A stretch of DNA of 64,000 nt from Escherichia coli. GTDB taxonomy: Bacteria; Pseudomonadota; Gammaproteobacteria; Enterobacterales; Enterobacteriaceae. A program made the position numbers and the translations under genes. Under the pieces are notes generated by a model that saw only the letters and a program-made list of their open reading frames with translations, was not told the DNA's origin and ran no database searches. Shown piece by piece: positions 1-41,741 of the stretch; the stretch's first letter is position 1, and the number at the start of each line of letters is the position of its first letter. The stretch lies in assembly GCF_044324875.1 (NCBI RefSeq), contig NZ_CP172185.1. One strand, 5' to 3'.

Positions 1-666
1 ACCTGAGTTATCTCTGGTCTTTAAGCGCATCGTGTTATCGCGTTGATGTGTTCACCTGACGGATTTTCCAGTCCGTCAGGGCGGAACGTCCGTCTTTTAT
101 CCGGAGGTTCCGATGTTTATTCCACTTCTGTTTCGCGCAGAGATGCGCCTGACACCTTTCTTTCAGCGACTCAGACAACGTCTGTGTTATCCGGTGAGTC
201 GTGTTCATACACAACATCCCTGGTCTTCTCCACAGTTGCGGCACCTTTACTGCACGCCGTGGTTTGTTAACGCCACCGGCAATCTGGCAGTCCGTGCCTG
301 CATTGTTTCCATTGACGGTTCTTTGCGACACTGCTTTGAGTTCCGTGAAGGCTCTCACAGCCGTGAATACCGTTTCTGGTTTGAGGCGCTTCCTTTGTCG
401 GTACTGCGTTTTAACGCTTTTACCGGTCGAATATCCGATCGCCGTACACTCTCTGCTGCCTCCCGTATGGCCGCGCAGCTTACTTCCTTTCGCTATCGCT
501 TCGGTTTGCGCTGAAGCTGTTTGAGGTCGTTATGACCGTCATTTTCTCTACGAGCAGCGTTGTCTGATCGCGCCATTCAGAACGCGATGACAAAGCTGAT
601 TTTTCCTTAACCCGTCCGGGAGCGCTTCCGTTCGGGGAACGGTCTCTCTGTTTCTGGAGATTGTTT

Positions 667-1053
667 ATGGGACTCGATATTTTTTTCCTTGGGCGTGATC
701 GTGTTTGTGTTACCGACGCAGTGGTATCGGTACCGGAAACGCGGGAAGTGGGGTACTTTCGCAAGGTTAACCCACTGATTGCCTGGTTTGAGAAGCATTG
801 TGGACCGCTTGAAAATGCCGTGGAGCGTCCGGTTTCCAGAACGAAACTGGAGGCACTACTGAGCGATCTTGAATGCCTTACGCCGGAGAACTGCCGGGAA
901 TTCTTCCCCACAACAGAAGGATTCTTTTTTGGCTCTCAGGAGTATGACCAGTATTACTGGAAGGATGTTGAGGACGTGAAGTCGTGGGTCAGACGCACGC
1001 TTGATTCGTTTGATTTTGAACGAAAAATACTGTTGCTCTGGGCATGGTGGTAA
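667..1053 (+). CDS. hypothetical protein (island cargo, ~128 aa)
   Basis: ORF track 661..1053 (alternative start at 661, ATG at 667); no recognisable motif; lies upstream of ardA. Confidence 0.3.
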   Translation: MGLDIFFLGRDRVCVTDAVVSVPETREVGYFRKVNPLIAWFEKHCGPLENAVERPVSRTKLEALLSDLECLTPENCREFFPTTEGFFFGSQEYDQYYWKDVEDVKSWVRRTLDSFDFERKILLLWAWW

Positions 1054-1471
1054 CTATTTCTCAGTCCTTATTTTTAACCATGTGATTATTCGCAGAGGCC
1101 CGACAGCTCTGGCCTGCTTTTATTCCGGAGAATGAGATTATGCAAATAAGTGCAGAAACTCGCGCTGTTTTACGTCACTACAGACAGATCATTAACGCCA
1201 GACGGCGTGAAGATGGCATGAAAGCTCTCAGCACGCCGCAAATCGTTGATGAGATCTGTGAGTTTATGCTCAGCCAGCCAGCAGTGTATCTGGGGGGGCA
1301 GTTCATCATGCAGAAGGCCAGAACAAGATAGCTGTCTTTGTTCATGGCTTTTCAACAGACCGTTATGCTTTCGCCACCACATGGTAAGGCGGGTCTGATT
1401 TTACTGTTAACCGTACGGTTCACTCTCATACCGTACGGTGGGAGTGAACCCTTTTCATTAAGGACACTCTC

Positions 1472-1682
1472 ATGAAAACGAAAACTTCTGCACCTGCTGT
1501 ATATGTTGGTACCTGGGCTAAATACAACAATGGCAGCATAGAAGGATGCTGGTTTAATGATTTAACCGTTTTTGAAACTGAAAGCGATTTTTTATCTGCG
1601 GCCCGTAAGTTTCATCAGGATGAAAAAGATCCTGAATTTATGTACCAGGATTATGAAAACTTTCCTTCGGGAATGGCTTCAG
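1472..1682 (+). pseudogene. ardA: antirestriction protein ArdA, N-terminal fragment interrupted by an IS
   Basis: Translation ...PAVYVGTWAKYNNGSIEGCWFNDL...DPEFMYQDYENFPSGMAS matches the ArdA N-terminus as I remember it; reading frame runs 6 codons into the IS end and stops. Confidence 0.6.
1676..1682. repeat. candidate target-site duplication GCTTCAG (left copy)
   Basis: Identical 7-mer immediately flanks both ends of the IS21-family element (second copy 4322..4328). Confidence 0.45.
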
Positions 1683-1884
1683 TGCAAAATGGCATCTGAA
1701 TCGATCGCAGTTTGGCATTCGAATCGATCATGATTTGGCATCCATCTCCGATCACAGTTTGGCATCACAATCGATCACGATTTGGCATGCTTCCGATCAT
1801 TGATTGGCATCCTGCCAGTCACTCCGGGAATTAACTCTTTTCACCACAGTCTCCATTGCCGTGTTTAAACCAGTGGAGACGTCA

Positions 1885-3450
1885 ATGTCCAGAAAGAGAA
1901 AATCCAGGAGCACTATGGAAACCTGTTTTAAGATCCTTCAGCTCAAGTTCGACAAGAAGCTGACTAACCGTTGTATCGGACTGACGTTACACATCAGCGC
2001 CTCAACCGTTTTTGAGGTTCTTGCCCGCTTCAAAGCCTCTTCTCTGTCATGGCCATTACCTGCTGATATATCCCATGACACGCTGGAGAAACTCATTTTT
2101 CCGCCCAAAGACACCTTTGCATCAGAGCTTGTAATGCCTGACATGTTGTACTTCGATACGGAAATGAGAAAACCAGGTGTGACGCGGCAACTGTTGTGGA
2201 TGGAATACAAGGCACAGGCGGGTAACAAAGCGATGGGATACTCGCACTTCTGCCGTTGCTACCGGGAGTGGAAAAAAACGCGACGTCTCTCCATGCGCCA
2301 GGAGCATCGTGCCGGCGAAAAGCTTTTTATCGACTTCTGTGGTCCTACGGTTCCTGTTATTAATCCGGACACCGGTGAGATACGCCGCGTGGCAATCTTC
2401 GTGGCCGTAATGGGGGCGTCCAACTATACCTACGTTGAAGCGTGCGAAGGTCAGGACATGATGTCATGGTTAAATGCCCACAGCCGTTGCCTGACCTTCC
2501 TGGGCGGCGTACCGAAGCTGCTCATCCCCGATAACCTCAGAAGCGCAGTGAAAAAGGCCGATCGATATGAGCCTGTCATCAACGACAGTTATCAGGCACT
2601 GGCTGAGCACTATGGCACGGTTATCATCCCGGCCCGACCACGCAAACCTAAAGATAAACCAAAAGCAGAAAACGGCGTCCTCATCGTTGAACGATGGCTT
2701 CTTGCCCGCATCCGTAATGAAACCTTCCACACGCTCAGGGCGCTGAATGCGCGCCTTAGGGAGTTACTGACAGACATGAATAACCGGCCAATGAAGGGGT
2801 ACGGCAATCAAACCCGTGCAGAACGCTTCCGCATACTGGATGCGCCAGCACTCTCTCCGCTGCCTCTGGCACCTTATGAATACACGGAATACAAAGCTGT
2901 GAAGGTTGGCCCTGACTACCACGTTGAATATGCCCGTCACTGGTACTCCGTTCCACACGAACTGGTCGGTCAGCGTCTGTCACTGAAGGCGGGGCAGTCG
3001 GTGGTACAGCTCTGGCACAAGGGGCAGTGTGTGGCGCAACATCCGCGCAGCACACATGAATATAAACACACAACCAATCCGCTTCACATGCCAGAGCGCC
3101 ACCGGCAGCACGGGACATGGACACCGGAACGCCTGATCGAGCAGGGAAAACGTACGGGCCCGTCCACAGGCCGGGTGGTTGAATCCATGCTGAAGGCAAA
3201 ACCCCATCCGGAACTGGCTTATCGTGCAGTTCTGGGGCTGCTGGCACTTCAGAAAAAATACGGCCCGGAACGGCTGGAAAAGGCCTGTTACGTTGCCCTG
3301 CACTATAACGCCCCTGACAGACGCTTTATCGACAATCTGCTGCGTCACCATCGGGAGAACCTGGAGCTTCCATTATCCCGCCAGGGCGAACAACATCCGG
3401 CATATGCTTCAGAGCATGAAAACCTGCGTGGTCCGGGCTACTACCACTGA
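1885..3450 (+). CDS. istA: IS21-family transposase IstA
   Basis: ORF track 1804..3450; N-terminal HTH-like region then integrase-fold region; start at ATG 1885 or 1915 is uncertain. Confidence 0.8.
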   Translation: MSRKRKSRSTMETCFKILQLKFDKKLTNRCIGLTLHISASTVFEVLARFKASSLSWPLPADISHDTLEKLIFPPKDTFASELVMPDMLYFDTEMRKPGVTRQLLWMEYKAQAGNKAMGYSHFCRCYREWKKTRRLSMRQEHRAGEKLFIDFCGPTVPVINPDTGEIRRVAIFVAVMGASNYTYVEACEGQDMMSWLNAHSRCLTFLGGVPKLLIPDNLRSAVKKADRYEPVINDSYQALAEHYGTVIIPARPRKPKDKPKAENGVLIVERWLLARIRNETFHTLRALNARLRELLTDMNNRPMKGYGNQTRAERFRILDAPALSPLPLAPYEYTEYKAVKVGPDYHVEYARHWYSVPHELVGQRLSLKAGQSVVQLWHKGQCVAQHPRSTHEYKHTTNPLHMPERHRQHGTWTPERLIEQGKRTGPSTGRVVESMLKAKPHPELAYRAVLGLLALQKKYGPERLEKACYVALHYNAPDRRFIDNLLRHHRENLELPLSRQGEQHPAYASEHENLRGPGYYH

Positions 3451-3466
3451 CAGAAGGAACAACAGT

Positions 3467-4222
3467 ATGAGTGATAACCTGTTAAACAAACTGACCCAAC
3501 TGAAACTCCCGGCGATGGCCGGGAGCCTGATACGGCAGCGGGAAACGCCTCAGACCTACGACGAACTGTCGTTCGAGGAAAGGCTGACGCTGCTGGTTGA
3601 TGACGAGCTTCTGAGCAGGGAAAACAGCCGTGTGGCACGGTTGAGAAAAAATGCCGGCCTGAAATACCAGGCAACACCGGAAGGGCTGCGCTATCCGGCC
3701 TCAAGAGGTCTGCGGGCTGAACAGATGAGAGAACTGCTGAACGGCCACTACATAACCCACAGGAAAAACCTGCTGATAACCGGTCCGACAGGATGTGGCA
3801 AGAGCTGGATAGCCAATGCGCTGGGCGAACAGGCATGTCGACAGAAACACAGCGTCCGGTACTGTAGAACCGGGCGATTACTGGAACAACTGGCTCAGGG
3901 ACGTGTTGATGGCAGCTGGCTGAAATATCTGAAACAGTTGCAAAAAATACAGGTTCTAATCCTGGACGATCTGGGGCTGGAACAGTTAAGTAACGCCCAG
4001 TGTAATGACCTTCTGGAGCTCATAGAGGATCGTTACGGACAAAGCAGCACGATAGTGGTAAGCCAGTTCCCGGTAGATAAATGGCATGGTCTGATGGAGA
4101 ACCCAACAACAGCAGATGCCATCCTGGACAGACTGGTACATAACTCACACCGAGTGGTCCTTCAGGGAGAGTCACTGAGGAAAAATCCCCCGGTAGTGGA
4201 AAGCAGCGAAAAAACGCGTTAA
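3467..4222 (+). CDS. istB: IS21-family helper ATPase IstB
   Basis: Walker A GPTGCGKS and Walker B LILDD motifs; ATG 3467 lies 17 nt after the istA stop; ORF track 3224..4222 is an N-terminally over-extended version. Confidence 0.85.
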   Translation: MSDNLLNKLTQLKLPAMAGSLIRQRETPQTYDELSFEERLTLLVDDELLSRENSRVARLRKNAGLKYQATPEGLRYPASRGLRAEQMRELLNGHYITHRKNLLITGPTGCGKSWIANALGEQACRQKHSVRYCRTGRLLEQLAQGRVDGSWLKYLKQLQKIQVLILDDLGLEQLSNAQCNDLLELIEDRYGQSSTIVVSQFPVDKWHGLMENPTTADAILDRLVHNSHRVVLQGESLRKNPPVVESSEKTR

Positions 4223-4300
4223 AAAGCGGTAGAAAAAGTTAAGTTCCCGGTTGATCGAATGGATGCGAATCGCTGATCGGACTTCGATGCCAATCCGTGA

Positions 4301-4627
4301 TCGAATAGAGCGGAATACGCAGCTTCAGAATATGGTTTCAACTGGGCTTATGTTGAAGGTTATCGTCTTGCCCGTGAAGAAGGCTGTGAAGATGCATGGT
4401 ATGCATGGGTTTCTAATACCGGTGATACCTGTTTCGAACAGTTCAGGGAGGCGTGGCTTGGTGGTCCTTATGACAGTGAACTCGAGTTCGCCGCGCAGTA
4501 CGTGGATGAATGCGGTTTTCTGTCAGAGGTACCTGATACTGTTGCACGCTATTTTGATTATGAGGCTTTTGCGCGCGATTTGTTCATGGAACTGGATTTT
4601 GTCGACGGACACGTTTTCCATCGGTAA
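4301..4627 (+). pseudogene. ardA: ArdA C-terminal fragment (no start codon)
   Basis: Frame without ATG translates ...EYGFNWAYVEGYRLAREEGCEDAWYAWVSNTGD...VARYFDYEAFARDLFMELDFVDGHVFHR*, matching the ArdA C-terminal region as I remember it; joins the 1472..1682 fragment across the IS. Confidence 0.55.
4322..4328. repeat. candidate target-site duplication GCTTCAG (right copy)
   Basis: Same 7-mer as 1676..1682. Confidence 0.45.
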
Positions 4628-4730
4628 CTCACAGCCATGAGGGCGCATATAAGCCGTGTACTGGCGGATGTGATTTCAGCATACATTCTGCTGGTTTTTT
4701 TACCGTTGTTGACAATTTTAATCATCGCGG

Positions 4731-5183
4731 ATGAACAACCTGAACTCTGTTGTTCACCGCCCGGAGGCATCGTTCCTTCGGACGGTGTGCTCTTTCATCA
4801 GAAAGAATCAGACAGGGGGTTTTATGTATTCGCGTTTTATTACTGGTTACTGGCATCTTCAGACGCAGTCCGCTTTGCTGGCACATCTCTGTCAGCTTGA
4901 AGGTGAACTGACGATACTTCGCGCCTGGCAACGTCTCGGAATTACCCCGGTGCCGGAGGATGAAGATGAGCCTTCACCACTTTACTCAATTTTGTGGGAT
5001 GTTGGTGAGGCTCTGGGCTGGTTGCTGTATGACCTGGAGATGGAAAATGTTCCTGCACCGGGAACGATTTTCCACGAGGTATTCGACAGGGTTATATCTC
5101 TGGGGTATGAGACTGAGCCCGGTATCTGGGCTGAAAGTATCAGTACCGGAAAGCGCTACGCTGCAATGCCTGACGAATTTTAA
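4731..5183 (+). CDS. hypothetical protein
   Basis: ORF track; start ambiguous (an internal Met MYSRF... is possible); followed by a hairpin. Confidence 0.3.
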   Translation: MNNLNSVVHRPEASFLRTVCSFIRKNQTGGFMYSRFITGYWHLQTQSALLAHLCQLEGELTILRAWQRLGITPVPEDEDEPSPLYSILWDVGEALGWLLYDLEMENVPAPGTIFHEVFDRVISLGYETEPGIWAESISTGKRYAAMPDEF

Positions 5184-5196
5184 TGTTTTCCACATT

Positions 5197-5220
5197 CCCA
5201 CAGGGACTCATCCCTGTGGG
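5197..5220 (+). other. GC-rich palindrome CCCACAGGGA-N4-TCCCTGTGGG, followed by GGGACGGGTCCC and a T-run
   Basis: Perfect 10-bp inverted repeat read from sequence; possible terminator or RNA element between small ORFs. Confidence 0.5.
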
Positions 5221-5250
5221 ACGGGTCCCGGCTTTTTCAGGAGAAATTTC

Positions 5251-5589
5251 ATGAGACCCGATTTGAATACTTTACCCGGAGATTCCGGCTGCAGCGTCTG
5301 GTTCTATGACGGAATGTCTCAACCGCGTCTGCTGGCGGGCAGTATTGCCGGGTTACTGACGGATGTTACGATCACATCGAATTACCGTGGTGACGTCACA
5401 TCTGAAATTCATGACGTGGTGCAGGAGTGGCTTGCGACCGGCAGGGGTAACCTGGCGGATTTAAAGGAAGAACTCTGGTACTACAACCTCTACATAAATC
5501 CGTCGGCAGACGAACTTATGAATGCCAACAGGCGGTATGGCCTCGGACATACCACCAGGCTGAAAGGCTTTATCAATAACGCGGCGTGA
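5251..5589 (+). CDS. hypothetical protein (~112 aa)
   Basis: ATG 5251 preceded by AGGAG; internal start of ORF track 4960..5589. Confidence 0.35.
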   Translation: MRPDLNTLPGDSGCSVWFYDGMSQPRLLAGSIAGLLTDVTITSNYRGDVTSEIHDVVQEWLATGRGNLADLKEELWYYNLYINPSADELMNANRRYGLGHTTRLKGFINNAA

Positions 5590-5600
5590 CACACCGCCAT

Positions 5601-5626
5601 CCCGTGAGGGCTCAGCTCCTCACGGG
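5601..5626 (+). other. palindrome CCCGTGAGG-N8-CCTCACGGG
   Basis: 9-bp inverted repeat upstream of the RBS of the 5665 ORF; the same motif recurs at 6148..6173. Confidence 0.5.
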
Positions 5627-5664
5627 GCTGTTCCCTCGGTGATTTTCATACAGAGAGGAGCAGA

Positions 5665-6102
5665 ATGATGAACGTTAAGTCTGTGACTGAGGTTGACGAC
5701 GCTGTGGTTGCCCGTGTCAGTGAAGTTCTGGAATTCGCATTTCCGGGGCAGAAATTTGAAGTGCTGAAGGTATGCGATTCCGGCGTTTACAACATGATTA
5801 ATGTGTACTGGCTGGACGGCCCGACACAGGCTGAAGTGCGGTTTATCACCCGTGCGTTTGAAGGCAAAAACGGGCTGAGGTTTGTGCACGAATCCCGCGA
5901 ATTCAGTAATGAATTTGTGCAGGAGTGCATTGACCGGCTTCGCCAGAAGTACGGGCATCGCAACGTTCCGCCAGAGGTGACCGTGGAGCGTTACTGGAAA
6001 AACGATCTGTGGAAGATTAAAACAGATCGTTTCCCGGGCACTATTGAGGTTGCCATCAACGAAATGGGGATGGAAACCAGTAAATACCGGAAGGTTGTAT
6101 AA
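5665..6102 (+). CDS. hypothetical protein (145 aa)
   Basis: ORF track; GAGGAG RBS upstream. Confidence 0.4.
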   Translation: MMNVKSVTEVDDAVVARVSEVLEFAFPGQKFEVLKVCDSGVYNMINVYWLDGPTQAEVRFITRAFEGKNGLRFVHESREFSNEFVQECIDRLRQKYGHRNVPPEVTVERYWKNDLWKIKTDRFPGTIEVAINEMGMETSKYRKVV

Positions 6103-6123
6103 CCGGCTGGACTTTTGACGATG

Positions 6124-6147
6124 GCGGAATGTGACAATTCCGCTTTT
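6124..6147 (+). terminator. candidate intrinsic terminator (GCGGAAT-N6-ATTCCGC + TTTTCC)
   Basis: Stem-loop followed by T-run 20 nt after the stop of the 5665..6102 ORF. Confidence 0.4.
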
Positions 6148-6182
6148 CCCGTGAGGGCATTGTTCCTCACGGGACAATGCCC
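6148..6182 (+). other. two overlapping alternative palindromes (CCCGTGAGG/CCTCACGGG and GGGCATTGT/ACAATGCCC)
   Basis: Read from sequence; the two stems are partly mutually exclusive; sits just upstream of the RBS of the 6210 ORF. Confidence 0.45.
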
Positions 6183-6209
6183 TCTTCATTTACCAGAGGA
6201 GCATTGATT

Positions 6210-7187
6210 ATGGCTGAATGGTGCAGAAATCGTTTTGAAATCACCGGTAAGTCAGTCTGTCTTGACGTACTGATTCAGTGGATTGAAGGGAATGATGCCC
6301 CCCGGTACCGTCATGCGATCCAGCAGAGCATACTGCTGTTTCTTGCAGGCTGTGCGGGGATACTGAAACCGGTAAGAACGGTGTCATATCCGCCTTATCC
6401 CGGGCTGGTCAGTCACGGTGCCGGCTCAACAACTGTAGCCAGTCAGGCGTTTGAACAATGGCTGGGATTACTGACCAGGGATGCCTTCCTTGATCACGAG
6501 ACGGTGAAGACAATAGATCGTCTTTATCATCAGACAGGGACAGGCGCTATCCGGTGGAGTAATCTGCCTGATACGGCGAAGGAGATAATCGGTGGTGTGC
6601 TTGCACAACAATATGCTGACTGGTTTGGCGTGGCGGATGTGTATGAACGCCCTGATAACGCCTTTCTCTGGGAGTCGTTGTTAACATTTGCGGAGTATTC
6701 GCAACCCTGTGATATGCTGCAGGTGATGCCAACACGACTGGCCACGGAGCTGAACGGAAGTGGTGGTTTGCTGAAAGGCACCGGAACGACCCGCAGTTTT
6801 TACTGCCGCCAGTTTGGTATGGAGTACCCACTGGGGCAGAATGTCCGGTGGAAACGAACCGGGCTGAGTACGTTGATACTGGAGTTTGATACCATCTGGT
6901 GTCCGCCTTCAGGTGTACTGGTGGGGGAGATTTCGGCAGTGTTTGACTGTGAGGTCCGTCACTGGTACAGCGAGCCGAAGAACGGAATCAGAGGCTATGA
7001 CTGTTATGATGGTGGTGAACATACGGACAGCAATATGGAAGCCGAATGGCCACACTCTGACGATGAGGGGGAGGTCGCGGAGCATGAGCAGCCACAACTC
7101 TGTCTGATCAGGGACACGCAGCCAGGTGAACGCGTCATGGCATTAGCATCAGTCGAGTCCCCGGGGCCAGTAGTAAAAATAGTGTAA
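6210..7187 (+). CDS. hypothetical protein (~325 aa)
   Basis: ORF track 6177..7187; ATG 6210 (MAEWCRNRF...) preceded by GAGGAG; acidic C-terminal tail. Confidence 0.45.
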   Translation: MAEWCRNRFEITGKSVCLDVLIQWIEGNDAPRYRHAIQQSILLFLAGCAGILKPVRTVSYPPYPGLVSHGAGSTTVASQAFEQWLGLLTRDAFLDHETVKTIDRLYHQTGTGAIRWSNLPDTAKEIIGGVLAQQYADWFGVADVYERPDNAFLWESLLTFAEYSQPCDMLQVMPTRLATELNGSGGLLKGTGTTRSFYCRQFGMEYPLGQNVRWKRTGLSTLILEFDTIWCPPSGVLVGEISAVFDCEVRHWYSEPKNGIRGYDCYDGGEHTDSNMEAEWPHSDDEGEVAEHEQPQLCLIRDTQPGERVMALASVESPGPVVKIV

Positions 7188-7196
7188 TGAAACAAT

Positions 7197-7221
7197 GCGC
7201 CACATTTTGTGGCGCTTTTTT
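7197..7221 (+). terminator. intrinsic terminator (GCGCCAC-TTTT-GTGGCGC + TTTTTT)
   Basis: Perfect 7-bp stem followed by T6, 10 nt after the stop of the 6210..7187 ORF. Confidence 0.6.
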
Positions 7222-7268
7222 AATAAATCAGTGATGGCAGAGTTGTTATTGTAAATAACTCTCCGTGT

Positions 7269-10184
7269 TTACTGAGTCAGTTTTTTTATCAGGTCGTGAA
7301 TTTTATCACCTGAAAACTGGGTCATGAAAGTTATCTTTATGGATTTACTGATTTGTTCGAAGAGTTTCTGTGCATGTTTTATTTTATCGCGTTCTTCATG
7401 TCTGAGTTCACGTTTGCCATCAACATTTTTGGTTTCAATAATAAGGTTCAGATAATCACCCTTTGACGTGTTTACAACATAAGCGAAGTCAGGGGAGTAA
7501 GTGTATCCTCCCGCTACAGGAATTTTTATTGAATTTTTGGGGATCTTTGTGAAGACAATGACTGACCTGACCTCACCCTCTGTCATATTGAGTTTTTCAA
7601 GTTCTGAATCATAAAATACTTCTTCAAAAAGATAAGAGTCCAGTGGAGGGCTTGTATTATCCTGTAAAACGCCAAGATCACTTGACAATACATCAGCAAG
7701 ATAACCGCCGTCTGCATTGGTGAATTTCGTGGGATGGACAGTTCCTGATATTACATTATACCCAAGGCTGAATTTACTGAACGAGTTATTAAGCAAATAC
7801 TTGCTGAAACCAGATTTAATTTTTCTGATTGTCTGAATGTTAAGGTATTCAGTTATATTTATGATGTCTTTTATATCACAAAAAACCTTATGCATGGTGT
7901 CATGTTTGACAAAAATAGTCTGTGATAATTTATCAAGGAATTCACGATAGCTCATTGTGTTTATTTTGTGAAAATTATCCTCATCAACACTGAGAATGCT
8001 TTTCGACATTGCCGTATCATTATGGATATAAATTCTTTCAATACGAGTATGAGCACCGGATTTGGTAAATCTGTCTGCTTCTTCCAGCATAAACGCTCTG
8101 AAAAGGGATAAAAACTCACGTTCACTTTTTATTTTATACTCAATCACGACCTTTTGATTGATCAAGTCCCATAGTTCTTTCAGCTCACTGAACTTACCAA
8201 CACGCATTTTAGTGCGTCTTTTTCCATCAGAGGCTTTTTTTATTTTGCCTGGTTTCACTCCTGCAGGAAATGCTGCCGGATATCTGGCTTTTAAGCGGCT
8301 ATAGGCATCTGAATCTTTGAAGTTATCATTATCATCAATGATCTCATCATCAAAAATTTCATTCAAGAGTGTTCTGGAGGAAAGCTCCGGATATTGAGAC
8401 AGGATTTTATCCTTAAGTTCCTGAGTAAACTTACCTGGAACAGTCTCTTTGAAAGAACTATCGTTGATCTCTTTGACAAGAGAATCGACAAAATCTTTTT
8501 CTGTAAAATCAACATAATAGTTGAGGGTAAAATTGCGGTCTTTCACACGACACATGTATTCATTCACCGGAAGACGTAAACCACGCCCTACTTCCTGAAG
8601 TTTAGATGTGGTGCTACCGCTCGAACGGAGCTTACAAATCTGAAAGACATTTGGGTTATCCCATCCCTCACGCAACGTCCATTTAGAGAAAATGAAACGG
8701 CGAGGATTTTCTAAAGACAATAGAAGCTCTTTATCATGAAGGATTTCGTTGATTTCCTGCTCAATTTTATCATCTTTATCACTATTATCTTTTGAAAAAT
8801 AACCACCATGAACAGAAGATATATCCTTAACAGTTTTTTCAAGGTAGTTTCTGTAAAACTCATCTTTTTCTGTTTTTAACAGTTCATTTGCTTCTGCCAA
8901 AACGTATTCTTCGAACTTAGTTTTCAGGCTTCCTGCAATATCATTACCATCACGATAGCCTTCAATGTCATCAATGAAGAAAAGAGTAAGAGGTTTTATG
9001 CGTGGCCTTTGTGTCAGATACTCTTTTTCTAACTTAAAGTGTTCTTTGACAGCTTTACGTATCATGTTATCAGCAAGTGTCTGATCGTAAGAATAGGGGT
9101 TTATCGAACTACCAATTTTTAGCTCAATACCATTACTCAACACTGCTGTATTCTTATTTAAAGCATCAAGAGTTAAATCATGGATCGCACTATGCGTCTT
9201 AGATAGTGATTCACCTTTGGCTAACTTAAAAATTTTTTTATTATTATTTTCGTTCAGTTCAAATGTAGCTTCTTTTCCGTCAGATTTGACCAACTTGAGG
9301 TTGGCATTACCATCACCAACTATATCCTCAATGTATGCATCAATACCTTTAACAAGATCTTCATTGAAGGCATCTACGGCTGTAAGACGATAAACTAAGT
9401 TCTTATATCCTTCACTAAAGGTTGCACCATAGCGGATGATATATTGGGCATTAAATTTTTGAATATGTTCCCATGTCTTTTTACCAGTAGGAAATTTATG
9501 AGGCTCATCAATGATAATGAATGGTTTTATCGCACTAAGTGCAGAAAATGGGGTATCAAACTGATTATTAAGCAAGCCAACATCATAAGTGTCAGTTAAA
9601 GACTTAGAGTTAATCATCCCTGAATTGATCACAAGAATGTGTATATATTTCTTATTGAAATTACTTGCTTCAACAAAATCATGGATAGCTTGAGGCATAT
9701 ACGATTTTGTATTTTTACCCGAACGTTTCTGACTTTCAACAACGTAAGTCTTTAGTTCACGCTCGTAATCATCTCGAAAGTGTTCTTTTATAGCATCGCT
9801 TTTTAAAAAGTTAACGGTTCCGGCTTTGATCGATAGGGTAGGAACAATGATGATAAACTTGTTAATACCAAATGATTTGTTCAGGTCAAAAATTGTTTTG
9901 GTGTAAGTATAAGTTTTACCTGTACCTGTCTCCATAGAAACATCAATTACGTTGCTTTTAGCATCGTAATTATCTTTTGAGTGCTCAATACCATTGAACT
10001 CCTGAACATTTTTTATGTTGTTGTAGTATTGTTGTTCAGATAGATTCAGTTCTGGATTAGCTAACAGGCGAATTGCAACATGATCCGTCTGATGAGGTAT
10101 GGCGGATACAAAGACATTCATTACCGAATCAACGCCAGCCTTTTGATGAGGTAAATTTTTTTCGAATGTGAACCCTTTAGACAT
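7269..10184 (-). CDS. res: Type III restriction endonuclease Res subunit (helicase-nuclease)
   Basis: 971 aa; Walker A METGTGKTYT, DExH-like IIIDEPHKF, C-terminal PD-(x)n-ExK-like SPDFAYVV...IIETK; directly downstream of mod with a 2-nt gap; AT-rich. Confidence 0.85.
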   Translation of the reverse strand: MSKGFTFEKNLPHQKAGVDSVMNVFVSAIPHQTDHVAIRLLANPELNLSEQQYYNNIKNVQEFNGIEHSKDNYDAKSNVIDVSMETGTGKTYTYTKTIFDLNKSFGINKFIIIVPTLSIKAGTVNFLKSDAIKEHFRDDYERELKTYVVESQKRSGKNTKSYMPQAIHDFVEASNFNKKYIHILVINSGMINSKSLTDTYDVGLLNNQFDTPFSALSAIKPFIIIDEPHKFPTGKKTWEHIQKFNAQYIIRYGATFSEGYKNLVYRLTAVDAFNEDLVKGIDAYIEDIVGDGNANLKLVKSDGKEATFELNENNNKKIFKLAKGESLSKTHSAIHDLTLDALNKNTAVLSNGIELKIGSSINPYSYDQTLADNMIRKAVKEHFKLEKEYLTQRPRIKPLTLFFIDDIEGYRDGNDIAGSLKTKFEEYVLAEANELLKTEKDEFYRNYLEKTVKDISSVHGGYFSKDNSDKDDKIEQEINEILHDKELLLSLENPRRFIFSKWTLREGWDNPNVFQICKLRSSGSTTSKLQEVGRGLRLPVNEYMCRVKDRNFTLNYYVDFTEKDFVDSLVKEINDSSFKETVPGKFTQELKDKILSQYPELSSRTLLNEIFDDEIIDDNDNFKDSDAYSRLKARYPAAFPAGVKPGKIKKASDGKRRTKMRVGKFSELKELWDLINQKVVIEYKIKSEREFLSLFRAFMLEEADRFTKSGAHTRIERIYIHNDTAMSKSILSVDEDNFHKINTMSYREFLDKLSQTIFVKHDTMHKVFCDIKDIINITEYLNIQTIRKIKSGFSKYLLNNSFSKFSLGYNVISGTVHPTKFTNADGGYLADVLSSDLGVLQDNTSPPLDSYLFEEVFYDSELEKLNMTEGEVRSVIVFTKIPKNSIKIPVAGGYTYSPDFAYVVNTSKGDYLNLIIETKNVDGKRELRHEERDKIKHAQKLFEQISKSIKITFMTQFSGDKIHDLIKKLTQ

Positions 10185-10186
10185 GA

Positions 10187-12223
10187 TTAGTTTCTTACCA
10201 CCAAATCTAAATCAATAGATTTTTTATTAGCATAACTTTTTAGTGCTTCATTGAGTTCCATCTGTTTCGCACTTTCGAAGTTGCTGCCATAAAATACAAC
10301 TTTGTTAGGGGCAAAGTCTTTGTCTGCATCCAGCTTTTGAAGTAAAGCTTTCAAAGCCTCACTTGTGAAATTAGGCGCAATTAGATATAGCCGACCATCG
10401 CACAAGTGTGCTTTGTAGCCATTAAGGTCAATATCTTCAATTGGTGTTGTTAGCAAGCTGCCATCATACACGCACCATGTCGTCAATAGAGTGTCATACT
10501 GCTCTGGTGTCAATACAGCATCGTCAAAGAAACTAAGATTAGAAAGCGTAAGTTCAGACTCATCTTTCACTCGAAAATTATGAACTGTTTCAAATATTTT
10601 AAATCCCAAATCTCCATTATAATTAGGATTATCTTTTTTCAGCTTTTTTCCTGCCTTAATAATTCTGTCTTTTGTTATATTGAAGATGGATTTATACCCT
10701 TCTTTATAGGCTTGTTTCTTTTTATCTGTTTCTTCATCTAATTGAACACAGATGAAGTTTCTTTTCCTGCCGTCTTCAATATTTAACTCCAGAATACCAT
10801 GAGCTGTAGTTCCAGAGCCAGCAAAAAAGTCAAGATAAATGTCTTTATCTTCGGTTTTTACTGAACCAAATAGTGTTTTTATTAAACTTGTTGGCTTCGG
10901 GTAGGAGAAATATCCTTTCCCACCAAAAAGATTTTCAACCTCAACACCACCATCACTTTTAGTTGAAATAATTGATCTTAGTAAAAACTCTTCAACTTCA
11001 TCTAAAAATTTAACCGAACTGGGTTGGGTGTTTTCTGTACTGGCAAACCAAATTCCACCACAAATAACGCTACCATCATGTAGTTTTTTGATATCTGCAT
11101 ACTTTCCATCTATTCTTTTTGCAATATGATTAAAAGTGCCTTCTTTCCAACGCCAGCCTCTGTCTGGGATTTTGACAGGGTTATTAGTCAAAGGGTGCAA
11201 TACTTCATACGTGGGTCCAAATGAATCTGCATTAGGCCAGCTCATATTAATTTTACCCCATGGCCTATAATCTTCGTTCAAACAGTTGTAAAGAGTAATT
11301 CCACGATCATATCCGTTGGAGCTGTAGAATTTTTTGAGTTGCTGCTCTGCTTTATCTAATGGCACCTTCTCCTTTTTTAACTTTTCAATAAACTGATATA
11401 CATCATCAATACCATCTTTCCGCATTAAAAATTCTTTACTTATTTCGTTATTCTTCGCATAAGCAAGGATGTACTCATGGATATTACCAATACCCTTATC
11501 ATTTTTAGGGATACGTTTATTCCATACAATATTTTCTATGAAATTTGCTTCGCCAAAAATTTCATCACAAATAGTTTTAAGTTGATTTAATTCATTTTCG
11601 TCAATCGAAATAAATATCACACCATCTTCACGTAGAAGCTCACGAGCAATATATAAACGAGGATAAATGAACGTTAACCATGCGCTATGGCTGCTTGAAC
11701 CATTCGTGGTAAATTCAAGTATACGTTTAGCCTCATCAAGATCGATACCTGCCAGATCAGAAAGCTGTTCAGGTGTAAACTTGCGATCATCGTTATAGGC
11801 GAATCCATCCTTACCTGTATTGTATGGTGGATCAATGTAAATCATCTTCACCTTTTCAGAGTAAGCATTAACCATATGCTTCAATACTTCGAGGTTATCC
11901 CCTTTGATTAACAGATTCTGACTGTTTTTGTTCTCTTCACGTTGGTTATGGTCTTTATCTTCGGAGAGTAATGTCTTCGGCGGCAAGTTAGCTAACAGAC
12001 GGGCATAGGATTTACCAAGCCAGTTCAGGCTGTATGATTCTTTGGAGAGTTCAACATCCGATGATTTGACGATTTCAAGCAATTTTTCCTGAATGAACGC
12101 TCCATTTTTATCAAAACACTGTGGAAAGTTAGCCTTTAAAATCGCAAGCTGTTTACTGTTTGTGGTTTCAGTTTCAGAGAAAAGAGTTTCTTTTTTCAGT
12201 TGAAATTGGGGTTGTGTATTCAT
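10187..12223 (-). CDS. mod: Type III DNA methyltransferase Mod (N6-adenine)
   Basis: 678 aa; motif IV IYIDPPYNTG before motif I LDFFAGSGTT (beta-class order typical of Type III Mod); strong GGAGG RBS; ATG 12223 overlaps the stop of the upstream leader ORF. Confidence 0.9.
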   Translation of the reverse strand: MNTQPQFQLKKETLFSETETTNSKQLAILKANFPQCFDKNGAFIQEKLLEIVKSSDVELSKESYSLNWLGKSYARLLANLPPKTLLSEDKDHNQREENKNSQNLLIKGDNLEVLKHMVNAYSEKVKMIYIDPPYNTGKDGFAYNDDRKFTPEQLSDLAGIDLDEAKRILEFTTNGSSSHSAWLTFIYPRLYIARELLREDGVIFISIDENELNQLKTICDEIFGEANFIENIVWNKRIPKNDKGIGNIHEYILAYAKNNEISKEFLMRKDGIDDVYQFIEKLKKEKVPLDKAEQQLKKFYSSNGYDRGITLYNCLNEDYRPWGKINMSWPNADSFGPTYEVLHPLTNNPVKIPDRGWRWKEGTFNHIAKRIDGKYADIKKLHDGSVICGGIWFASTENTQPSSVKFLDEVEEFLLRSIISTKSDGGVEVENLFGGKGYFSYPKPTSLIKTLFGSVKTEDKDIYLDFFAGSGTTAHGILELNIEDGRKRNFICVQLDEETDKKKQAYKEGYKSIFNITKDRIIKAGKKLKKDNPNYNGDLGFKIFETVHNFRVKDESELTLSNLSFFDDAVLTPEQYDTLLTTWCVYDGSLLTTPIEDIDLNGYKAHLCDGRLYLIAPNFTSEALKALLQKLDADKDFAPNKVVFYGSNFESAKQMELNEALKSYANKKSIDLDLVVRN

Positions 12224-12432
12224 AACGCACCTCCAGAATGCACGGAGGTACTTGACGCGGAATTTTTATACAGGCATATTGTTGCGTTGCGTTGCGTTGC
12301 GTTGCGTTGCGTTGCGTTGCGTTTCGTTGCGTTGCGTTGCGTTGCGTTGCGTTGCGTTGCGTTGCGTTGCGTTGCGTTGCGTTGCGTTGCGTTGCGTTGC
12401 GTTGCGTTGCGTTGCGTTGCGTTGCGTTTCAT
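12220..12432 (-). CDS. repeat-containing leader ORF, 70 codons, MK(RNATQ)n..., translationally coupled to mod
   Basis: ATG at 12432 with GAGG 7 nt upstream; the whole pentanucleotide tract is inside the ORF; TGA stop overlaps mod ATG (ATGA). Confidence 0.4.
   Translation of the reverse strand: MKRNATQRNATQRNATQRNATQRNATQRNATQRNATKRNATQRNATQRNATICLYKNSASSTSVHSGGAL
12281..12430. repeat. pentanucleotide tandem repeat (GTTGC)n, 30 units, 28 perfect
   Basis: Read directly: 8 perfect units, GTTTC variant at 12321..12325, 20 perfect units 12326..12425, GTTTC variant 12426..12430. Confidence 0.95.
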
Positions 12433-12465
12433 TAAATAGCCTCGAGTTTCGTTTTACAGGTTTTT

Positions 12466-12494
12466 ATTCTAACCTGAATTGTTGATTTTCTGAA
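12466..12494 (-). promoter_or_regulatory. candidate sigma70 promoter for the leader-mod-res transcript (-35 TTCAGA, 17-nt spacer, -10 TAGAAT)
   Basis: Hexamers read on the minus strand upstream of the leader RBS; no experimental support. Confidence 0.25.
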
Positions 12495-12505
12495 TAAGTC
12501 TGACG

Positions 12506-12680
12506 TCAGTTGTTACGGGAAGGTATCAGAGTGGCTAGATGCACTGTGGCACGTCTCATGGCGGTTATGGGGCTTGCCGGCGTTCTCCGGGGGGTAAAGC
12601 TCCGTGCTACTGTCACCTGGAACGCCGTTGCCGCAGGCGACCGCGTAAACCGTCTGTACCGCCCGGGCCCAATATTAAGA
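12506..12680 (+). pseudogene. IS3-family transposase (OrfB-like) internal fragment, degenerate
   Basis: Translation LLREGIRVARCTVARLMAVMGLAGVLRG...AVAAGDRVNR resembles the middle of IS3-family OrfB; no start; homology ends abruptly. Confidence 0.5.
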
Positions 12681-12709
12681 ACTAACGTCATACCAGGGAC
12701 GTTGTCTGA

Positions 12710-13723
12710 ATGGATGAGAAGCTAAAACATGCGGATTTATCGTCTTTGCCAGAGCAGGTGAGGGTTGCCGCTAGGGAGCTTGTTGACCTGAAGTTTCGTA
12801 TCGATATGGCAGCAAGAGGCGGTACGTCAGGGATACCACTTGACCTGCATGGGAGGATGACAGGAGGAGAATGGGGGCCGCATTGCGGGCTGGAATTTTT
12901 CTGCAGCATCATTCCTTTTTTCCCGCGAGATTTTGAAACCTGTTCAGTAACTGAAATGTTGGTTCCTACCTTACATACCTTCGGCTGCAACTGGCGTTGG
13001 TGGCCCGATCGTTATTGTAGCGACAAAGATGAACACTATATACGGCGTCACATTTTTTCTGATTACGGGCTGAAAAGTACGAGCTATACCTTCATTCCTC
13101 AGTTGGGATTGTTCTGCCCGAGTGAAGGTAAAAATCGTGTTAACTTCTGCCGCCATCACGGTATCGAATATATCCCCGCACAGGTTTATTCCCATGATTA
13201 CCCAGAAGCAAATCGAATCTCTGTGTACGTTCAGGATACTGCCGGAGGGCTGGATGTGTGGGCCGTTCTTGATAATCGCTATGTTCAGAAGGTTACTCAC
13301 TATGCCTTTGCGCTCCCACTTTTGTGCGCTTATGGGGTAGAGTTCCCAGGTAAGTGGCCAGCAGGATGGCCATCGATATCGGACCTCCTGGCTAATCAAC
13401 TGTGTTGCACTGATGACACAACCTTTCATAAACCCGTGATCGATATGCAAGCTGTCAGGGATACGCTGGATCGTGATGAGAACAGCAGAGAGGATGGGGA
13501 GATGTATGTCAAAACCAATGTGGTTGAGCTGCCGCTGGCCGGGCTGGTTCGCTTCATTCTGATCGCAATGTTACTGAGTTTAGGTGCGTTGTTCATCCAC
13601 GAGGTACTGGATGAGGGAAGCCTGTCCAGGATTGCACTGGGAATAAGCACTTTCACGGCTGGCGTGGTTGCTTCGTTTTTTATCCCAGCGTTCCGTATCA
13701 AGAAAAAATATCTTCGCAAATAG
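12710..13723 (+). CDS. hypothetical protein with two C-terminal transmembrane helices (337 aa)
   Basis: ORF track; Cys/Trp-rich soluble part, then hydrophobic helices and a KKK tail; no recognised domain. Confidence 0.35.
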   Translation: MDEKLKHADLSSLPEQVRVAARELVDLKFRIDMAARGGTSGIPLDLHGRMTGGEWGPHCGLEFFCSIIPFFPRDFETCSVTEMLVPTLHTFGCNWRWWPDRYCSDKDEHYIRRHIFSDYGLKSTSYTFIPQLGLFCPSEGKNRVNFCRHHGIEYIPAQVYSHDYPEANRISVYVQDTAGGLDVWAVLDNRYVQKVTHYAFALPLLCAYGVEFPGKWPAGWPSISDLLANQLCCTDDTTFHKPVIDMQAVRDTLDRDENSREDGEMYVKTNVVELPLAGLVRFILIAMLLSLGALFIHEVLDEGSLSRIALGISTFTAGVVASFFIPAFRIKKKYLRK

Positions 13724-13725
13724 TT

Positions 13726-13993
13726 GTGGCATTTCTTGAACACTTTTTCGAGACAGGTTCAACCGCAGGCATTCAGGCCAAACATGCGGTTAAACTACGT
13801 ATTCAATTAACTGCCCTAAATATGGCTAAGCGCCCGGACGATATGTCTGTCTGCACCTAGGTGGAAATTACACCCTCTAAAGGGAGCTGATCTTAGAGGT
13901 CATTGGGAAATATCAGTAAACTCTAACTGGCGAATTACCTTTCGATTTGAAGGCGAAGACGCAATTCTGGTTGACTATCAGGATTATCATTGA
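13726..13993 (+). pseudogene. higB: HigB/RelE-family toxin remnant (frameshifted, no start)
   Basis: Two frames together give ...FFETGSTAGIQAKHAVKLRIQLTALN... / ...WKLHPLKGADLRGHWEISVNSNWRITFRFEGEDAILVDYQDYH*, the characteristic HigB C-terminus as I remember it. Confidence 0.5.
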
Positions 13994-13998
13994 GGGAT

Positions 13999-14001
13999 AA
14001 C
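13999..14001. repeat. 3-bp target-site duplication AAC (left)
   Basis: AAC flanks both ends of the IS629-like element (right copy 14747..14749). Confidence 0.45.
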
Positions 14002-14746
14002 TGAACCGCCCCGGGAATCCTGGAGACTAAACTCCCTGATAAAGAGGTAAACAGAATGACTAAAAATACTCGTTTTTCCCCCGAAGTCCGTCAGAGGGCG
14101 ATTCGTATGGTTCTGGAAAGTCAGGGCGAATATGACTCACAGTGGGCGGCAATTTGTTCCATTGCCCCAAAGATTGGCTGTACACCGGAGACTCTGCGTG
14201 TCTGGGTACGCCAGCATGAGCGGGATACCGGAGGCGGTGATGGCGGGCTCACCACCGCTGAACGTCAGCGTCTGAAAGAGCTGGAACGTGAAAATCGTGA
14301 ACTGCGCCGCATCGTCTATGGAAACGACATTCGTGCTGGATGCTCTGGAGCAGGCGTTATGGGCCCGTCGACCGTCCGGCACAGTCCATCACAGTGATAA
14401 AGGTTCTCAGTATGTATCGCTGGCCTACACACAGCGGCTTAAGGAAGCCGGATTACTGGCATCAACAGGAAGTACTGGTGACTCGTATGACAACGCGATG
14501 GCGGAGAGCATCAATGGCCTTTACAAAGCGGAGGTAATACACCGTAAGAGCTGGAAAAACCGGACAGAAGTGGAGCTGGCCACACTCACGTGGGTGGACT
14601 GGTATAACAATCGACGATTGCTGGAAAGGCTGGGCCATATCCCACCGGCAGAAGCAGAAAAAGCTTATTATGCTTCCATCGGAAACGATGATCTGGCAGC
14701 CTGAGTTCACAGATAAAACACTCTCCAGGAAACCCGGGGCGGTTCA
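14002..14746 (+). mobile_element. IS629-like (IS3 family) element with ~565-bp internal deletion
   Basis: Terminal inverted repeats TGAACCGCCCCGGG(A/T)TTCCTGGAGA at both ends; OrfA N-terminus [15 protein letters not shown]...RENRELRR is fused directly to OrfB C-terminal part ...[11 protein letters not shown]...DDLAA; 745 bp against ~1.3 kb expected (from memory). Confidence 0.7.
14056..14704 (+). pseudogene. truncated and fused IS3-family orfA/orfB
   Basis: ORF track 14056..14397 (OrfA 1-87 plus out-of-frame tail) and 14288..14704 (OrfB C-terminal ~130 aa). Confidence 0.6.
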
Positions 14747-14749
14747 AAC
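14747..14749. repeat. 3-bp target-site duplication AAC (right)
   Basis: See 13999..14001. Confidence 0.45.
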
Positions 14750-14767
14750 TATGAGTCGTATTCATAA

Positions 14768-14959
14768 TCCCGCCACTCAGGCGCGGTTCTTCGTGAAGAT
14801 CTGGGAGATATGTCAGTCACAGACGCTGCCACCGCATTGGGCATTACTCGCACGGCGCTTTCCCGGATTCTGAACGAAAAAGCGGGTATTTCTGCGGATA
14901 TGGCGCTCCGTCTGGAATCAGCACTCGGAACCAGCGCCGAAATGTGGACAGGTATGTAA
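14768..14959 (+). pseudogene. higA: HigA-like HTH antitoxin remnant (frameshifted, truncated)
   Basis: Translation HSGAVLREDLGDMSVTDAATALGITRTALSRILNEKAGISADMALRLESALGTSAEMW, an XRE-type HTH; normal start displaced by the IS insertion; C-terminal continuation is in another frame. Confidence 0.45.
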
Positions 14960-15163
14960 TCACAGTATGAGCTTTGGGTTGCTTCGCAAACTGCTCGCCC
15001 AAACATTCGCCCATTATTTCACCATGCCTGACATGCATTCCCCAACATTGGACGGGGAGCCGTCATGGAGGGGGCTACGCAGGAACCGCCGAAAGCACGC
15101 TGTTTTATATTTGTTTTATTGAATATAAGAGGAGGCCATAAAACGGCCCCCTTGTTTTTATCA

Positions 15164-15489
15164 GAAAGAGTAACGGAAGCTGGCGTTCACCGCGTTATCC
15201 ACGTTGTACTTACCAAATGCCGATTTCTCAAACTCCAGACCAAAGCGGAGATTATCGCGAATTTCTGCATTCAGACCAACATTCATGAGCATACGTCCGT
15301 CTTTCTCGCCTTTGATGCGTTTTTCACCAGAGGCATCGCGCGGAACGGTTTCACTGTTTGCCAGAATGTCAAACTGGTAACCGAGGCCGGCACGGGCAGT
15401 GACTTTCCAGTCCTTACCAGAGAAGGTTTTACCGACATCGATACCGGTACGGCCAATCAGCGGGTTGAAGTCCTTTCTGGTGTGAGAAC
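15164..15489 (-). pseudogene. autotransporter beta-domain C-terminal fragment (Ag43/AIDA-I-like), 5'-truncated
   Basis: Minus-strand translation ...GLGYQFDILANSETV...MLMNVGLNAEIRDNLRFGLEFEKSAFGKYNVDNAVNASFRYSF* with terminal aromatic; in-frame stop immediately upstream, no start. Confidence 0.45.
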
Positions 15490-15640
15490 CTTAAGGAAAT
15501 CGTCCGCAGCCCCATTACCGTCTTATATCACTGGCGCTGACATGTATTATCCGGGGAGTTAAGTCTGTCGATGTCCGACAGACTTTTGATAATGGAAACA
15601 ACATGCAGCGATAATGTGCATGCTGTTTTGCAGGTGGAAC

Positions 15641-39131: not shown

Positions 39132-39134
39132 GAA

Positions 39135-39166: not shown

Positions 39167-39176
39167 CTTTGCGTAA

Positions 39177-40634: not shown

Positions 40635-41741
<1,107 letters not shown>

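Follow-up and report, generated by a model that had tools for sequence, protein, structure and literature searches.

An IS21-family element, probably ISSso4, interrupts ardA on a conjugative island in the Escherichia coli chromosome

On a conjugative island in the chromosome of Escherichia coli, an insertion sequence of the IS21 family, probably ISSso4, disrupts the antirestriction gene ardA. The window analysed is a stretch of 64,000 nucleotides from contig NZ_CP172185.1 (RefSeq assembly GCF_044324875.1), and positions are counted from its first letter. The complete element, ISSso4 or a near-identical isoform, lies on the forward strand at 1683..4321. This is an ordinary gene disruption by a common E. 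coli jumping gene. The element and its ends, the target-site duplication, the empty site, the identities of both genes and the rarity of the occupied site were each established. The best explanation, in which we have high confidence, is one simple transposition of ISSso4 into ardA of a conjugative element integrated at pheV. We suggest that the locus be annotated as an ardA::ISSso4 pseudogene with the IS boundaries given here and the 7-bp duplication; its importance beyond annotation is small.

The inserted element

The element is 2639 bp long and has TG...CA ends, its first bases being TGCAAAATGG and its last bases GAATACGCA. It carries two intact, consecutive genes on the same strand, with the istB start 17 nt past the istA stop. 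The DDE transposase gene istA (1885..3450, forward strand) matches NCBIfam NF033546 with 284.6 bits (cut-off 160) and the Pfam families rve and Mu-transpos_C_2. Translation from the ATG at 1885 gives a protein of 521 aa; in the PGAP annotation of identical RefSeq copies the start is the ATG at 1915 and the product has 511 aa. The AAA+ helper ATPase gene istB (3467..4222, forward strand) encodes 251 aa and matches NCBIfam NF038214 with 257.8 bits (cut-off 200) and Pfam IstB_IS21 (E=1.2e-60). Both scores lie above the curated NCBIfam equivalog cut-offs for the IS21 family.

Target-site duplications of the IS21 family are 4–8 bp in length. The terminal inverted repeats of these elements are built from several direct repeats at intervals of about 23 bp, with 5'-TG...CA-3' ends (PMC10122671). 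Here the left terminal region (1683..1811, forward strand) consists of a terminal unit and an array in which the 18-bp motif CGATCAnnnTTTGGCATC occurs five times at a spacing of 22–24 bp; these sites are presumed to be bound by IstA. The right terminal region (4262..4321, reverse strand) consists of two inverted 18-bp copies (4262–4279 and 4286–4303) and a terminal unit ending ...ACGCA. The gene pair, the repeat arrays at TG...CA ends and the short duplication place the element in the IS21 family, as did the first-pass annotation, which had described a 2.6-kb istA-istB element with such ends and terminal repeats.

The prototypes IS21 and IS5376, known from biochemical and structural work, resemble the element in their two ORFs, one for a DDE transposase and one for an AAA+ helper, their TG...CA ends, their repeats of about 23 bp and their short duplication. 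The present element is longer (2.64 kb), has five left-end repeats plus the terminal unit where IS21 and IS5376 have L1-L2(-L3), and duplicates 4–7 bp among ten copies compared with 5 bp for IS5376 in vitro (PMC10122671).

Full-length copies with 100% identity are found in many E. coli genomes at different sites, in up to 23 places per genome, which indirectly suggests that the element may be active in transposition. Nine other copies have identical ends and length and are flanked by duplications of 4, 5, 5, 6, 6, 6, 7, 7 and 7 bp, in agreement with the ends and duplication first proposed for the copy in ardA. The bases TTCAG stand at the left junction in three of ten sites, a sample too small for a claim of target preference.

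ISSso4 was first named in Shigella sonnei. The present element shares its 2639-bp length, ends, istA-istB layout and multi-repeat ends, and its IstB is identical to WP_001282653.1. The element of the E. coli plasmid pCT, which is listed as ISSso4 (PMC6361801), is 99.7% identical over 2639 bp; seven bases differ, and there is no structural difference. PGAP gives the identical IstB the name 'ISSso4 family helper ATPase IstB' and calls IstA only 'IS21 family transposase'. The published pCT annotation and the PGAP name of IstB thus point to ISSso4 as the name of the element.

The interrupted gene and its product

Removal of 1683..4328 in silico, or equivalently of 1676..4321, restores the ardA ORF; the flanks then join as PSGMASEYGFNW in a single frame of 169 codons. 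The first-pass annotation had recognised the continuous frame and proposed to excise 1683..4321, an interval that has to be corrected since it leaves both GCTTCAG copies in place and shifts the frame by +7.

The restored protein aligns with ArdA over essentially its whole length: with Pfam ArdA (PF07275) at residues 10–162 (E=2.7e-26), with PDB 2w82, the solved structure of Tn916 ArdA, at residues 9–163 (E=1.8e-8), and with ArdA of the IncI-gamma/K1 plasmid pCT over its full length at 61% identity. It is highly acidic, with a pI of 4.21 and 33 D/E against 12 K/R, and its C-terminal motif VPDTVARYFDYEAFARDLF aligns with that of pCT. Full-length homology, the acidic composition of a DNA mimic and the conserved C-terminal antirestriction motif at the dimer interface place the restored protein in the ArdA family. 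With ArdA of IncI/K plasmids (ColIb-P9/R64/pCT type) the restored 169-aa protein shares the VPxTVAxYFDYEAxARDLF motif (pCT), and it is homologous to the Orf18 ArdA of Tn916 over its full length. Unlike the plasmid and Tn916 genes, the gene studied here is on a chromosomal integrative and conjugative element (ICE) and is interrupted past codon 70.

The 5' fragment (1472..1682, forward strand) comprises codons 1–70 and the first base of codon 71, and tblastn gives 100% identity to restored ArdA 1–70; the N-terminus had been placed at these same positions before. Its ORF runs into the IS and stops at 1697–1699, giving 75 aa (ArdA 1–70 followed by VQNGI). The 3' fragment (4329..4627, forward strand) runs from the second base of codon 71 through codon 169 to the stop. 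It bears the conserved C-terminal motif, now separated from the start codon, and its first in-frame start, GTG 4502, allows a remnant of at most 41 aa. This fragment had been thought to begin at 4301; it begins at 4329 (4322 with the repeat copy), and 4301–4321 is the right end of the IS.

A stem-loop of 13 pairs followed by CTTTTC (1417..1450, forward strand), found in a scan for terminator-like structures, precedes the ardA start codon by 21 nt, and the intergenic region 1332–1475 folds with z = -4.2 against shuffles. The stem-loop is either the upstream gene's terminator or a hairpin with a regulatory role. A terminator-like hairpin followed by TTTTTTT lies 49 nt past the ardA stop (4676..4694, forward strand; consensus scan only), pointing to ardA as a transcription unit by itself. 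The small ORFs neighbouring ardA have no NCBIfam or PADLOC family match, and tblastn with ArdA and with ArdB/KlcA of pCT found no further antirestriction genes in the window besides the two ardA halves.

In Orf18, domain 1 comprises residues 3–61 and the dimer-forming domain 3 residues 104–165 (PMC2731889). S70 of restored ArdA aligns with T61 of Orf18. The insertion past codon 70 of 169 would thus lie approximately at the boundary of ArdA domains 1 and 2, a placement drawn from a low-identity alignment to 2w82 with moderate posterior probabilities around the junction. From what is known of the IS21 family, IstA bound to the multi-repeat ends would join the 3'-CA ends of the element to the target at positions staggered by 7 bp, and repair after this staggered joining would produce the GCTTCAG duplication. 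The interrupted gene now gives at most the 75-aa protein, domain 1 with VQNGI, which lacks domain 2 and the C-terminal domain of dimerisation and of the 'antirestriction motif'; the 3' part is left without a usable start codon.

Full ArdA function, the DNA-mimic activity against Type I restriction, has therefore likely been lost. The loss is less than sure because the 75-aa remnant corresponds to ArdA domain 1. According to a preprint (10.1101/2025.03.20.644391), naturally occurring sArdN proteins, 87 aa long and confined to the N-terminal part, inhibit both restriction and modification by EcoKI, so the remnant might keep some activity. On this alternative antirestriction was kept, the 75-aa product acting as a monomeric, sArdN-like Type I inhibitor and the gene being converted, not lost. 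We consider this improbable. The break at about the domain 1/2 boundary, the retained native start codon and upstream region, the still acidic fragment (pI 4.5) and the activity of the 87-aa N-terminal-type small ArdA against EcoKI (10.1101/2025.03.20.644391) speak for it. Against these, the fragment is shorter than the sArdN tested and distantly related to it, its last five residues are foreign, and it has neither the C-terminal motif nor the dimer interface behind the mimicry of about 42 bp of DNA by ArdA. The allele is also rare, which gives no hint of selection in its favour, and the support comes from a single preprint. That a cut almost exactly at the domain 1/2 boundary has left a still-expressed remnant which may act as such a monomeric inhibitor is, taken as a whole, slightly more doubtful still. 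If the remnant were active, it would be a snapshot of the recently proposed small ArdA families arising from full-length genes; activity of an ArdA domain-1 fragment is the point of wider reach, and it touches on how small ArdA proteins are proposed to have arisen. If instead ArdA activity is gone, establishment of the ICE in recipients with Type I systems should be poorer. Such poorer entry is probable, and has a minor bearing on how this island of avian and extra-intestinal E. coli spreads.

The empty site and the rarity of the occupied site

The copies of GCTTCAG lie directly beside the element, at 1676–1682, where the alignments to the empty site overlap by 7 bp, and at 4322–4328, where the copy is seen both in the sequence and in the same alignment. 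Identity stops at seven bases and the eighth differs; seven flanking bases would match by chance with p = 4^-7 = 6e-5. By blastn, window positions 1–1682 correspond to 19020–20701 in the intact locus carried by E. coli CM2, and 4322–7253 to 20695–23626. The two alignments overlap by exactly 7 bp, which are therefore the bases of the empty site that were duplicated. The duplication, a candidate in the first-pass annotation, is thereby proven against CM2.

The restored locus of 1401 bp has full-length matches in 35 complete genomes, two of them at 100%. These two are intact loci of complete E. coli genomes that are annotated 'antirestriction protein ArdA', and since the restored locus is identical to them, the empty site exists. 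The restored join agrees base for base with intact 510-bp ardA genes of other E. coli, and the exact intact 169-aa protein is found on 803 contigs.

The occupied site is present in 0 of 5426 complete E. coli genomes, queried with the IS and 400-bp flanks, and the exact left junction has no match in a contig scan of GTDB representative genomes (one genome per species). The ardA/IS junction could serve as a lineage marker, as it is absent from the 5426 genomes. The insertion is seen in two sequencing runs, and the exact 75-aa product occurs in two Logan assemblies. A Logan contig (SRR31072984) equals window positions 1–1710 with 0 mismatches and reaches 28 nt into the IS; this independent contig reproduces the left junction exactly, so the insertion is no assembly artefact. 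It is lineage-specific and recent; its recency shows in the perfect duplication, in the 100% identity of the IS to other copies and in that of the flanks to intact alleles.

Some genomes carry several copies of ISSso4 (up to 23 places), so rearrangement or mis-assembly is possible in general, and recombination between IS copies or an assembly error might have put the ArdA pieces beside the IS. For this locus the idea is effectively refuted. Recombination between different copies would give non-matching flanks, but the 7-bp duplication is perfect and in the empty site the two flanks adjoin, at 100% identity; the window holds a single IS copy, and the independent short-read assembly has the same left junction. 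Equally, small ArdA genes of the N type and of the C type occur apart from each other in other taxa (10.1101/2025.03.20.644391), yet the reading of the two pieces as independent sArdN and sArdC genes that flank the IS and were never one gene is refuted by the 3' piece, which has no start codon until its last 41 codons, and by the join, which is the intact ardA gene of other E. coli with its widely found protein.

The ArdA protein cluster contains many 'partial' N-terminal fragments of 41–110 aa from draft assemblies. A recurrent IS hot spot in ardA was considered as their source and is unsupported; the fragments end in native sequence, without IS-derived residues. Several truncation points directly precede allelic differences (S42/A42, Q49/K49, N75/Y75), and the ardA locus is present twice in some genomes. 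Breaks in the assembly graph between two alleles fit the partial fragments better than an IS hot spot.

The host element and its Type III system

Protein signatures point to a host element of the pKLC102/PAGI-2 (PFGI-1/ICEEc2-type) group of ICEs at pheV. The window contains the tRNA-Phe gene pheV (35715–35790), a tyrosine integrase (34398–35510) and a PFGI-1-class (MobH-type) relaxase (TIGR03760, 193 bits, cut-off 161.4). The collinear intact locus of CM2 is annotated with TIGR03756/03757 ICE proteins, pilV and a prepilin peptidase. For ICEs of this kind, pheV is a recognised hotspot (PMC11537424). ICEEc2-like ICEs at pheV or pheU share integration at tRNA-Phe beside speC-nupG-mutY, the PFGI-1-class relaxase and the tyrosine integrase and, in the intact relative, the type IV pilus with its pilV shufflon and the TIGR03756/03757 proteins. 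[quoted passage not shown]

This system (7269..12223, reverse strand) lies outside the insertion event and consists of res (7269–10184) and mod (10187–12223). ArdA inhibits Type I systems and showed no effect in tests on Type III EcoPI or BREX (PMC10149784). The first-pass annotation had set the loss of ardA against the retention of the Type III system; the contrast has no functional meaning because ArdA does not inhibit Type III systems (PMC10149784). The system itself is intact: PADLOC gives REase_III with 1600 bits and MTase_III with 771 bits, both over the full profile length, and the lengths of res and mod are those annotated in E. coli CM2.

The interrupted ardA gene and its empty site

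A 2639-bp block at positions 1683-4321, beginning TGCAAAATGG and ending GAATACGCA, splits the ardA gene. The 5' open reading frame (ORF) starts at 1472, encodes MKTKTSAPAVYVGTW...ENFPSGMAS and lies in ardA sequence to base 1682, past which it enters unrelated sequence and stops at 1697-1699. The heptamer GCTTCAG abuts the block on the left (1676-1682) and on the right (4322-4328). Identity between the copies stops at seven bases, the eighth differs, and the chance of seven matching flanking bases is p = 6e-5. Once 1683..4328 is removed, the flanks form a 169-codon ORF (510 nt) that reads ...PSGMASEYGFNW... The flanks therefore do join into one frame as the first-pass annotation proposed, but its excision of 1683..4321 keeps both heptamers and shifts the frame. 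The C-terminal piece that it placed at 4301..4627 is present but starts at 4329, with 4322-4328 being the right repeat and 4301-4321 still belonging to the insertion sequence (IS).

The empty site is a stronger test than the chance figure. The restored locus, a 1401-bp query comprising 700 bp on either side and one heptamer, has a full-length match in 35 complete E. coli genomes and is 100% identical in two of these, strains CM2 and Br_112_kylling. The ORF at the empty site is called 'antirestriction protein ArdA' among all the matches listed. In a blastn comparison with the collinear CM2 locus (L001), window positions 1-1682 correspond to L001 19020-20701 and 4322-7253 to L001 20695-23626. 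These segments overlap on L001, so a stretch of exactly seven bases from the uninterrupted gene occurs twice in the window, bearing out the 7-bp target duplication suggested earlier.

The inserted element and its authenticity

The block carries istA (1885/1915..3450) and istB (3467..4222) on the same strand. IstA contains rve and Mu-transposase C-terminal Pfam domains and, with 284.6 bits, passes the cut-off of 160 for the NCBIfam IS21 transposase equivalog. IstB has the IstB_IS21 domain and reaches 257.8 bits on the IS21 helper ATPase equivalog, for which the cut-off is 200. By these profiles both proteins fit the IS21 family, to which the element had been assigned on first reading. The left end has a terminal unit followed by five 18-bp units CGATCAnnnTTTGGCATC (1702-1811) spaced at 22-24 bp; the right end has two inverted copies of the 18-bp unit (4262-4303) and its own terminal unit. 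IS21 family members share this multi-repeat terminal architecture with a spacing of about 23 bp, and two such ends are synapsed by IstA tetramers (PMC10122671).

An identical IstB is named 'IS21-like element ISSso4 family helper ATPase' in RefSeq. Plasmid pCT, whose insertion sequences include ISSso4 in a published comparison (PMC6361801), has a copy 99.7% identical to the window element across all 2639 bp, the sole IS21-type element within the half of pCT examined. We therefore call the element ISSso4, a name that comes through the RefSeq label and the pCT copy rather than an ISfinder reference.

Of 5426 complete E. coli genomes, 1778 contain the block by megablast, 225 of them at full length; it occurs on chromosomes as well as plasmids, with many copies at 100% identity. 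With the block and 400-bp flanks as query, matches end within a few bases of 1683 and 4321. Eight copies compared together with their flanks all equal the window copy in first and last bases and in length; with the pCT copy, nine other insertions agree with the ends as initially placed. Duplications of 5, 6, 5, 7, 4, 7, 7 and 6 bp flank the eight, and one of 6 bp flanks the pCT copy. Duplication length over the ten insertions, the window's included, is thus 4, 5, 5, 6, 6, 6, 7, 7, 7 and 7 bp. TTCAG occurs at the left junction in three of ten targets (GCTTCAG, GTTTCAG, TTCAGG), a sample too small for a claim of preference.

From knowledge of the family, IstA would assemble on the terminal repeats while IstB marks the target. 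IstA would then join the 3'-CA ends to the two strands of the target with a 7-bp offset, and repair of the gaps would leave the 7-bp duplication.

The occupied site is found in none of the 5426 complete E. coli genomes, and the junction was not found among GTDB species representatives. The exact 75-aa chimeric product also appears in public sequencing data, in two Logan assemblies; a contig of SRR31072984 equals window 1-1710 with zero mismatches, ending 28 nt inside the IS. Given these independent records, the junction cannot be put down to faulty assembly of the source genome. The duplication is perfect, the IS is 100% identical to other copies, and the flanks are 100% identical to intact alleles, all of which indicates a recent, lineage-specific insertion. 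This is an ordinary event, with a known IS, a known gene and a known kind of integrative and conjugative element (ICE).

N-terminal ArdA fragments labelled 'partial', 41-110 aa long, are numerous at contig ends in draft E. coli assemblies. Allelic differences at residues 42, 49 and 75 directly follow the ends of several, and IS-derived residues are absent from all. They are most likely assembly breaks between two diverged copies of the locus within a genome, rather than recurrent IS hits; truncations at 45, 57, 58, 67, 89 and 110 aa fall outside this explanation.

The ArdA protein and its remnant

The restored protein, which the first-pass annotation took to be ArdA, has a Pfam ArdA (PF07275) match spanning residues 10-162 (E=2.7e-26) and one to the crystallised Tn916 Orf18 ArdA (2w82) spanning residues 9-163 (E=1.8e-8). 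It is 61% identical over its full length to the ArdA of pCT, an IncI-gamma/K1 plasmid, including the conserved C-terminal motif. It is strongly acidic (pI 4.2), and the exact 169-aa sequence is recorded on 803 contigs.

In the Orf18 crystal structure domain 1 comprises residues 3-61, domain 2 62-103 and domain 3 104-165 (PMC2731889). The break after S70 aligns with T61 of Orf18, the end of domain 1, so by this alignment the present 75-aa product is essentially ArdA domain 1 plus VQNGI. The conserved 'antirestriction motif' has been placed at the interface of the dimer's two subunits (preprint 10.1101/2025.03.20.644391). In the 3' part the first in-frame start is a GTG 41 codons before the end. 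The full-length dimeric DNA mimic would be lost through the insertion, and no second ArdA or ArdB/KlcA homologue was found within the window. The ICE is now likely to lack protection from Type I restriction on entering a new host. Naturally occurring 'sArdN' proteins, 87 aa long and of the N-terminal type, are reported to relieve restriction by EcoKI and to block its modification (2025 preprint 10.1101/2025.03.20.644391), which makes residual activity of the domain-1 remnant conceivable, though we consider it improbable. The loss had also been set against the retention of a Type III system, which has both res and mod intact (7269-12223, minus strand). This contrast has no functional content, since Type III EcoPI was unaffected by ArdA, ArdB and Ocr in direct tests (PMC10149784).

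The host element and neighbouring sequence

Positions 36000-46000 (speC-nupG-mltC-mutY) match 5401 genomes, identifying the window as E. coli. The tRNA-Phe gene pheV occupies 35715-35790. On its left come genes for a tyrosine integrase (34398-35510) and for an ICE relaxase of the PFGI-1 class (32775-34367), which scores 193 bits where the cut-off is 161.4. TraF and a set of type IV pilus genes that includes a pilV shufflon are on this side too. The collinear CM2 locus encodes TIGR03756/03757 ICE proteins and a conjugative ATPase further upstream. From this gene content the host element is classed as a pKLC102/PAGI-2-type ICE; ICEs of this kind, such as ICEEc2, use pheV (PMC11537424).

Together with neighbouring LPD29 and DUF1281, the ardA segment is similar to IncI-type plasmid leading regions, and pCT likewise has DUF1281 and ArdA genes. 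Small ORFs on the ardA strand lie upstream (113-1331; 133, 128 and 63 aa) and downstream (4824-7187; 119 aa, 112 aa, LPD29 of 145 aa and DUF1281 of 325 aa), none with an NCBIfam or PADLOC match. Because they lie next to ardA, and DUF1281 also occurs in the pCT leading region, they are candidate anti-defence or establishment genes.

As single-stranded DNA, the 140 nt upstream of ardA (1332-1471, especially 1410-1450) show an unusual degree of structure (DNA fold z = -4.2). The palindrome ACCGTACGGT occurs twice (1410-1419 and 1430-1439) and the copies can pair together. An alternative 9-bp stem GGTTCACTC/GAGTGAACC (1417-1450) overlaps the palindromes and is followed by CTTTTC, 21 nt ahead of the ardA start codon. 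Possible roles for the region are those of a terminator, a regulatory switch or an element resembling the single-strand promoters that serve early leading-region genes.

Downstream of the Type III mod gene is a decayed patch (12224-15600), annotated in CM2 as an IS3 transposase fragment, frameshifted RelE/ParE toxin, integrase-core and HigA antitoxin genes, and an autotransporter remnant. An intact 337-aa ORF within it (12710-13723) is without NCBIfam or PADLOC match.

A 1284-bp segment (19165-20448) is inverted relative to the CM2 ICE (L001 36881-38164), which is collinear elsewhere, with overlaps of about 20 bp at both ends. It takes in the 3' end of pilV, beside a tyrosine recombinase gene (17979-19361); it looks like a shufflon in another orientation, which would give a different PilV C-terminus. 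CM2 also carries an IS1414 copy, of the IS256 family, separating DUF1281 from Type III res (L001 23627-24941); it is absent at window 7253/7246. Counting IS1414 in CM2 and ISSso4 in the window, at least two independent IS events set the two ICE copies apart.
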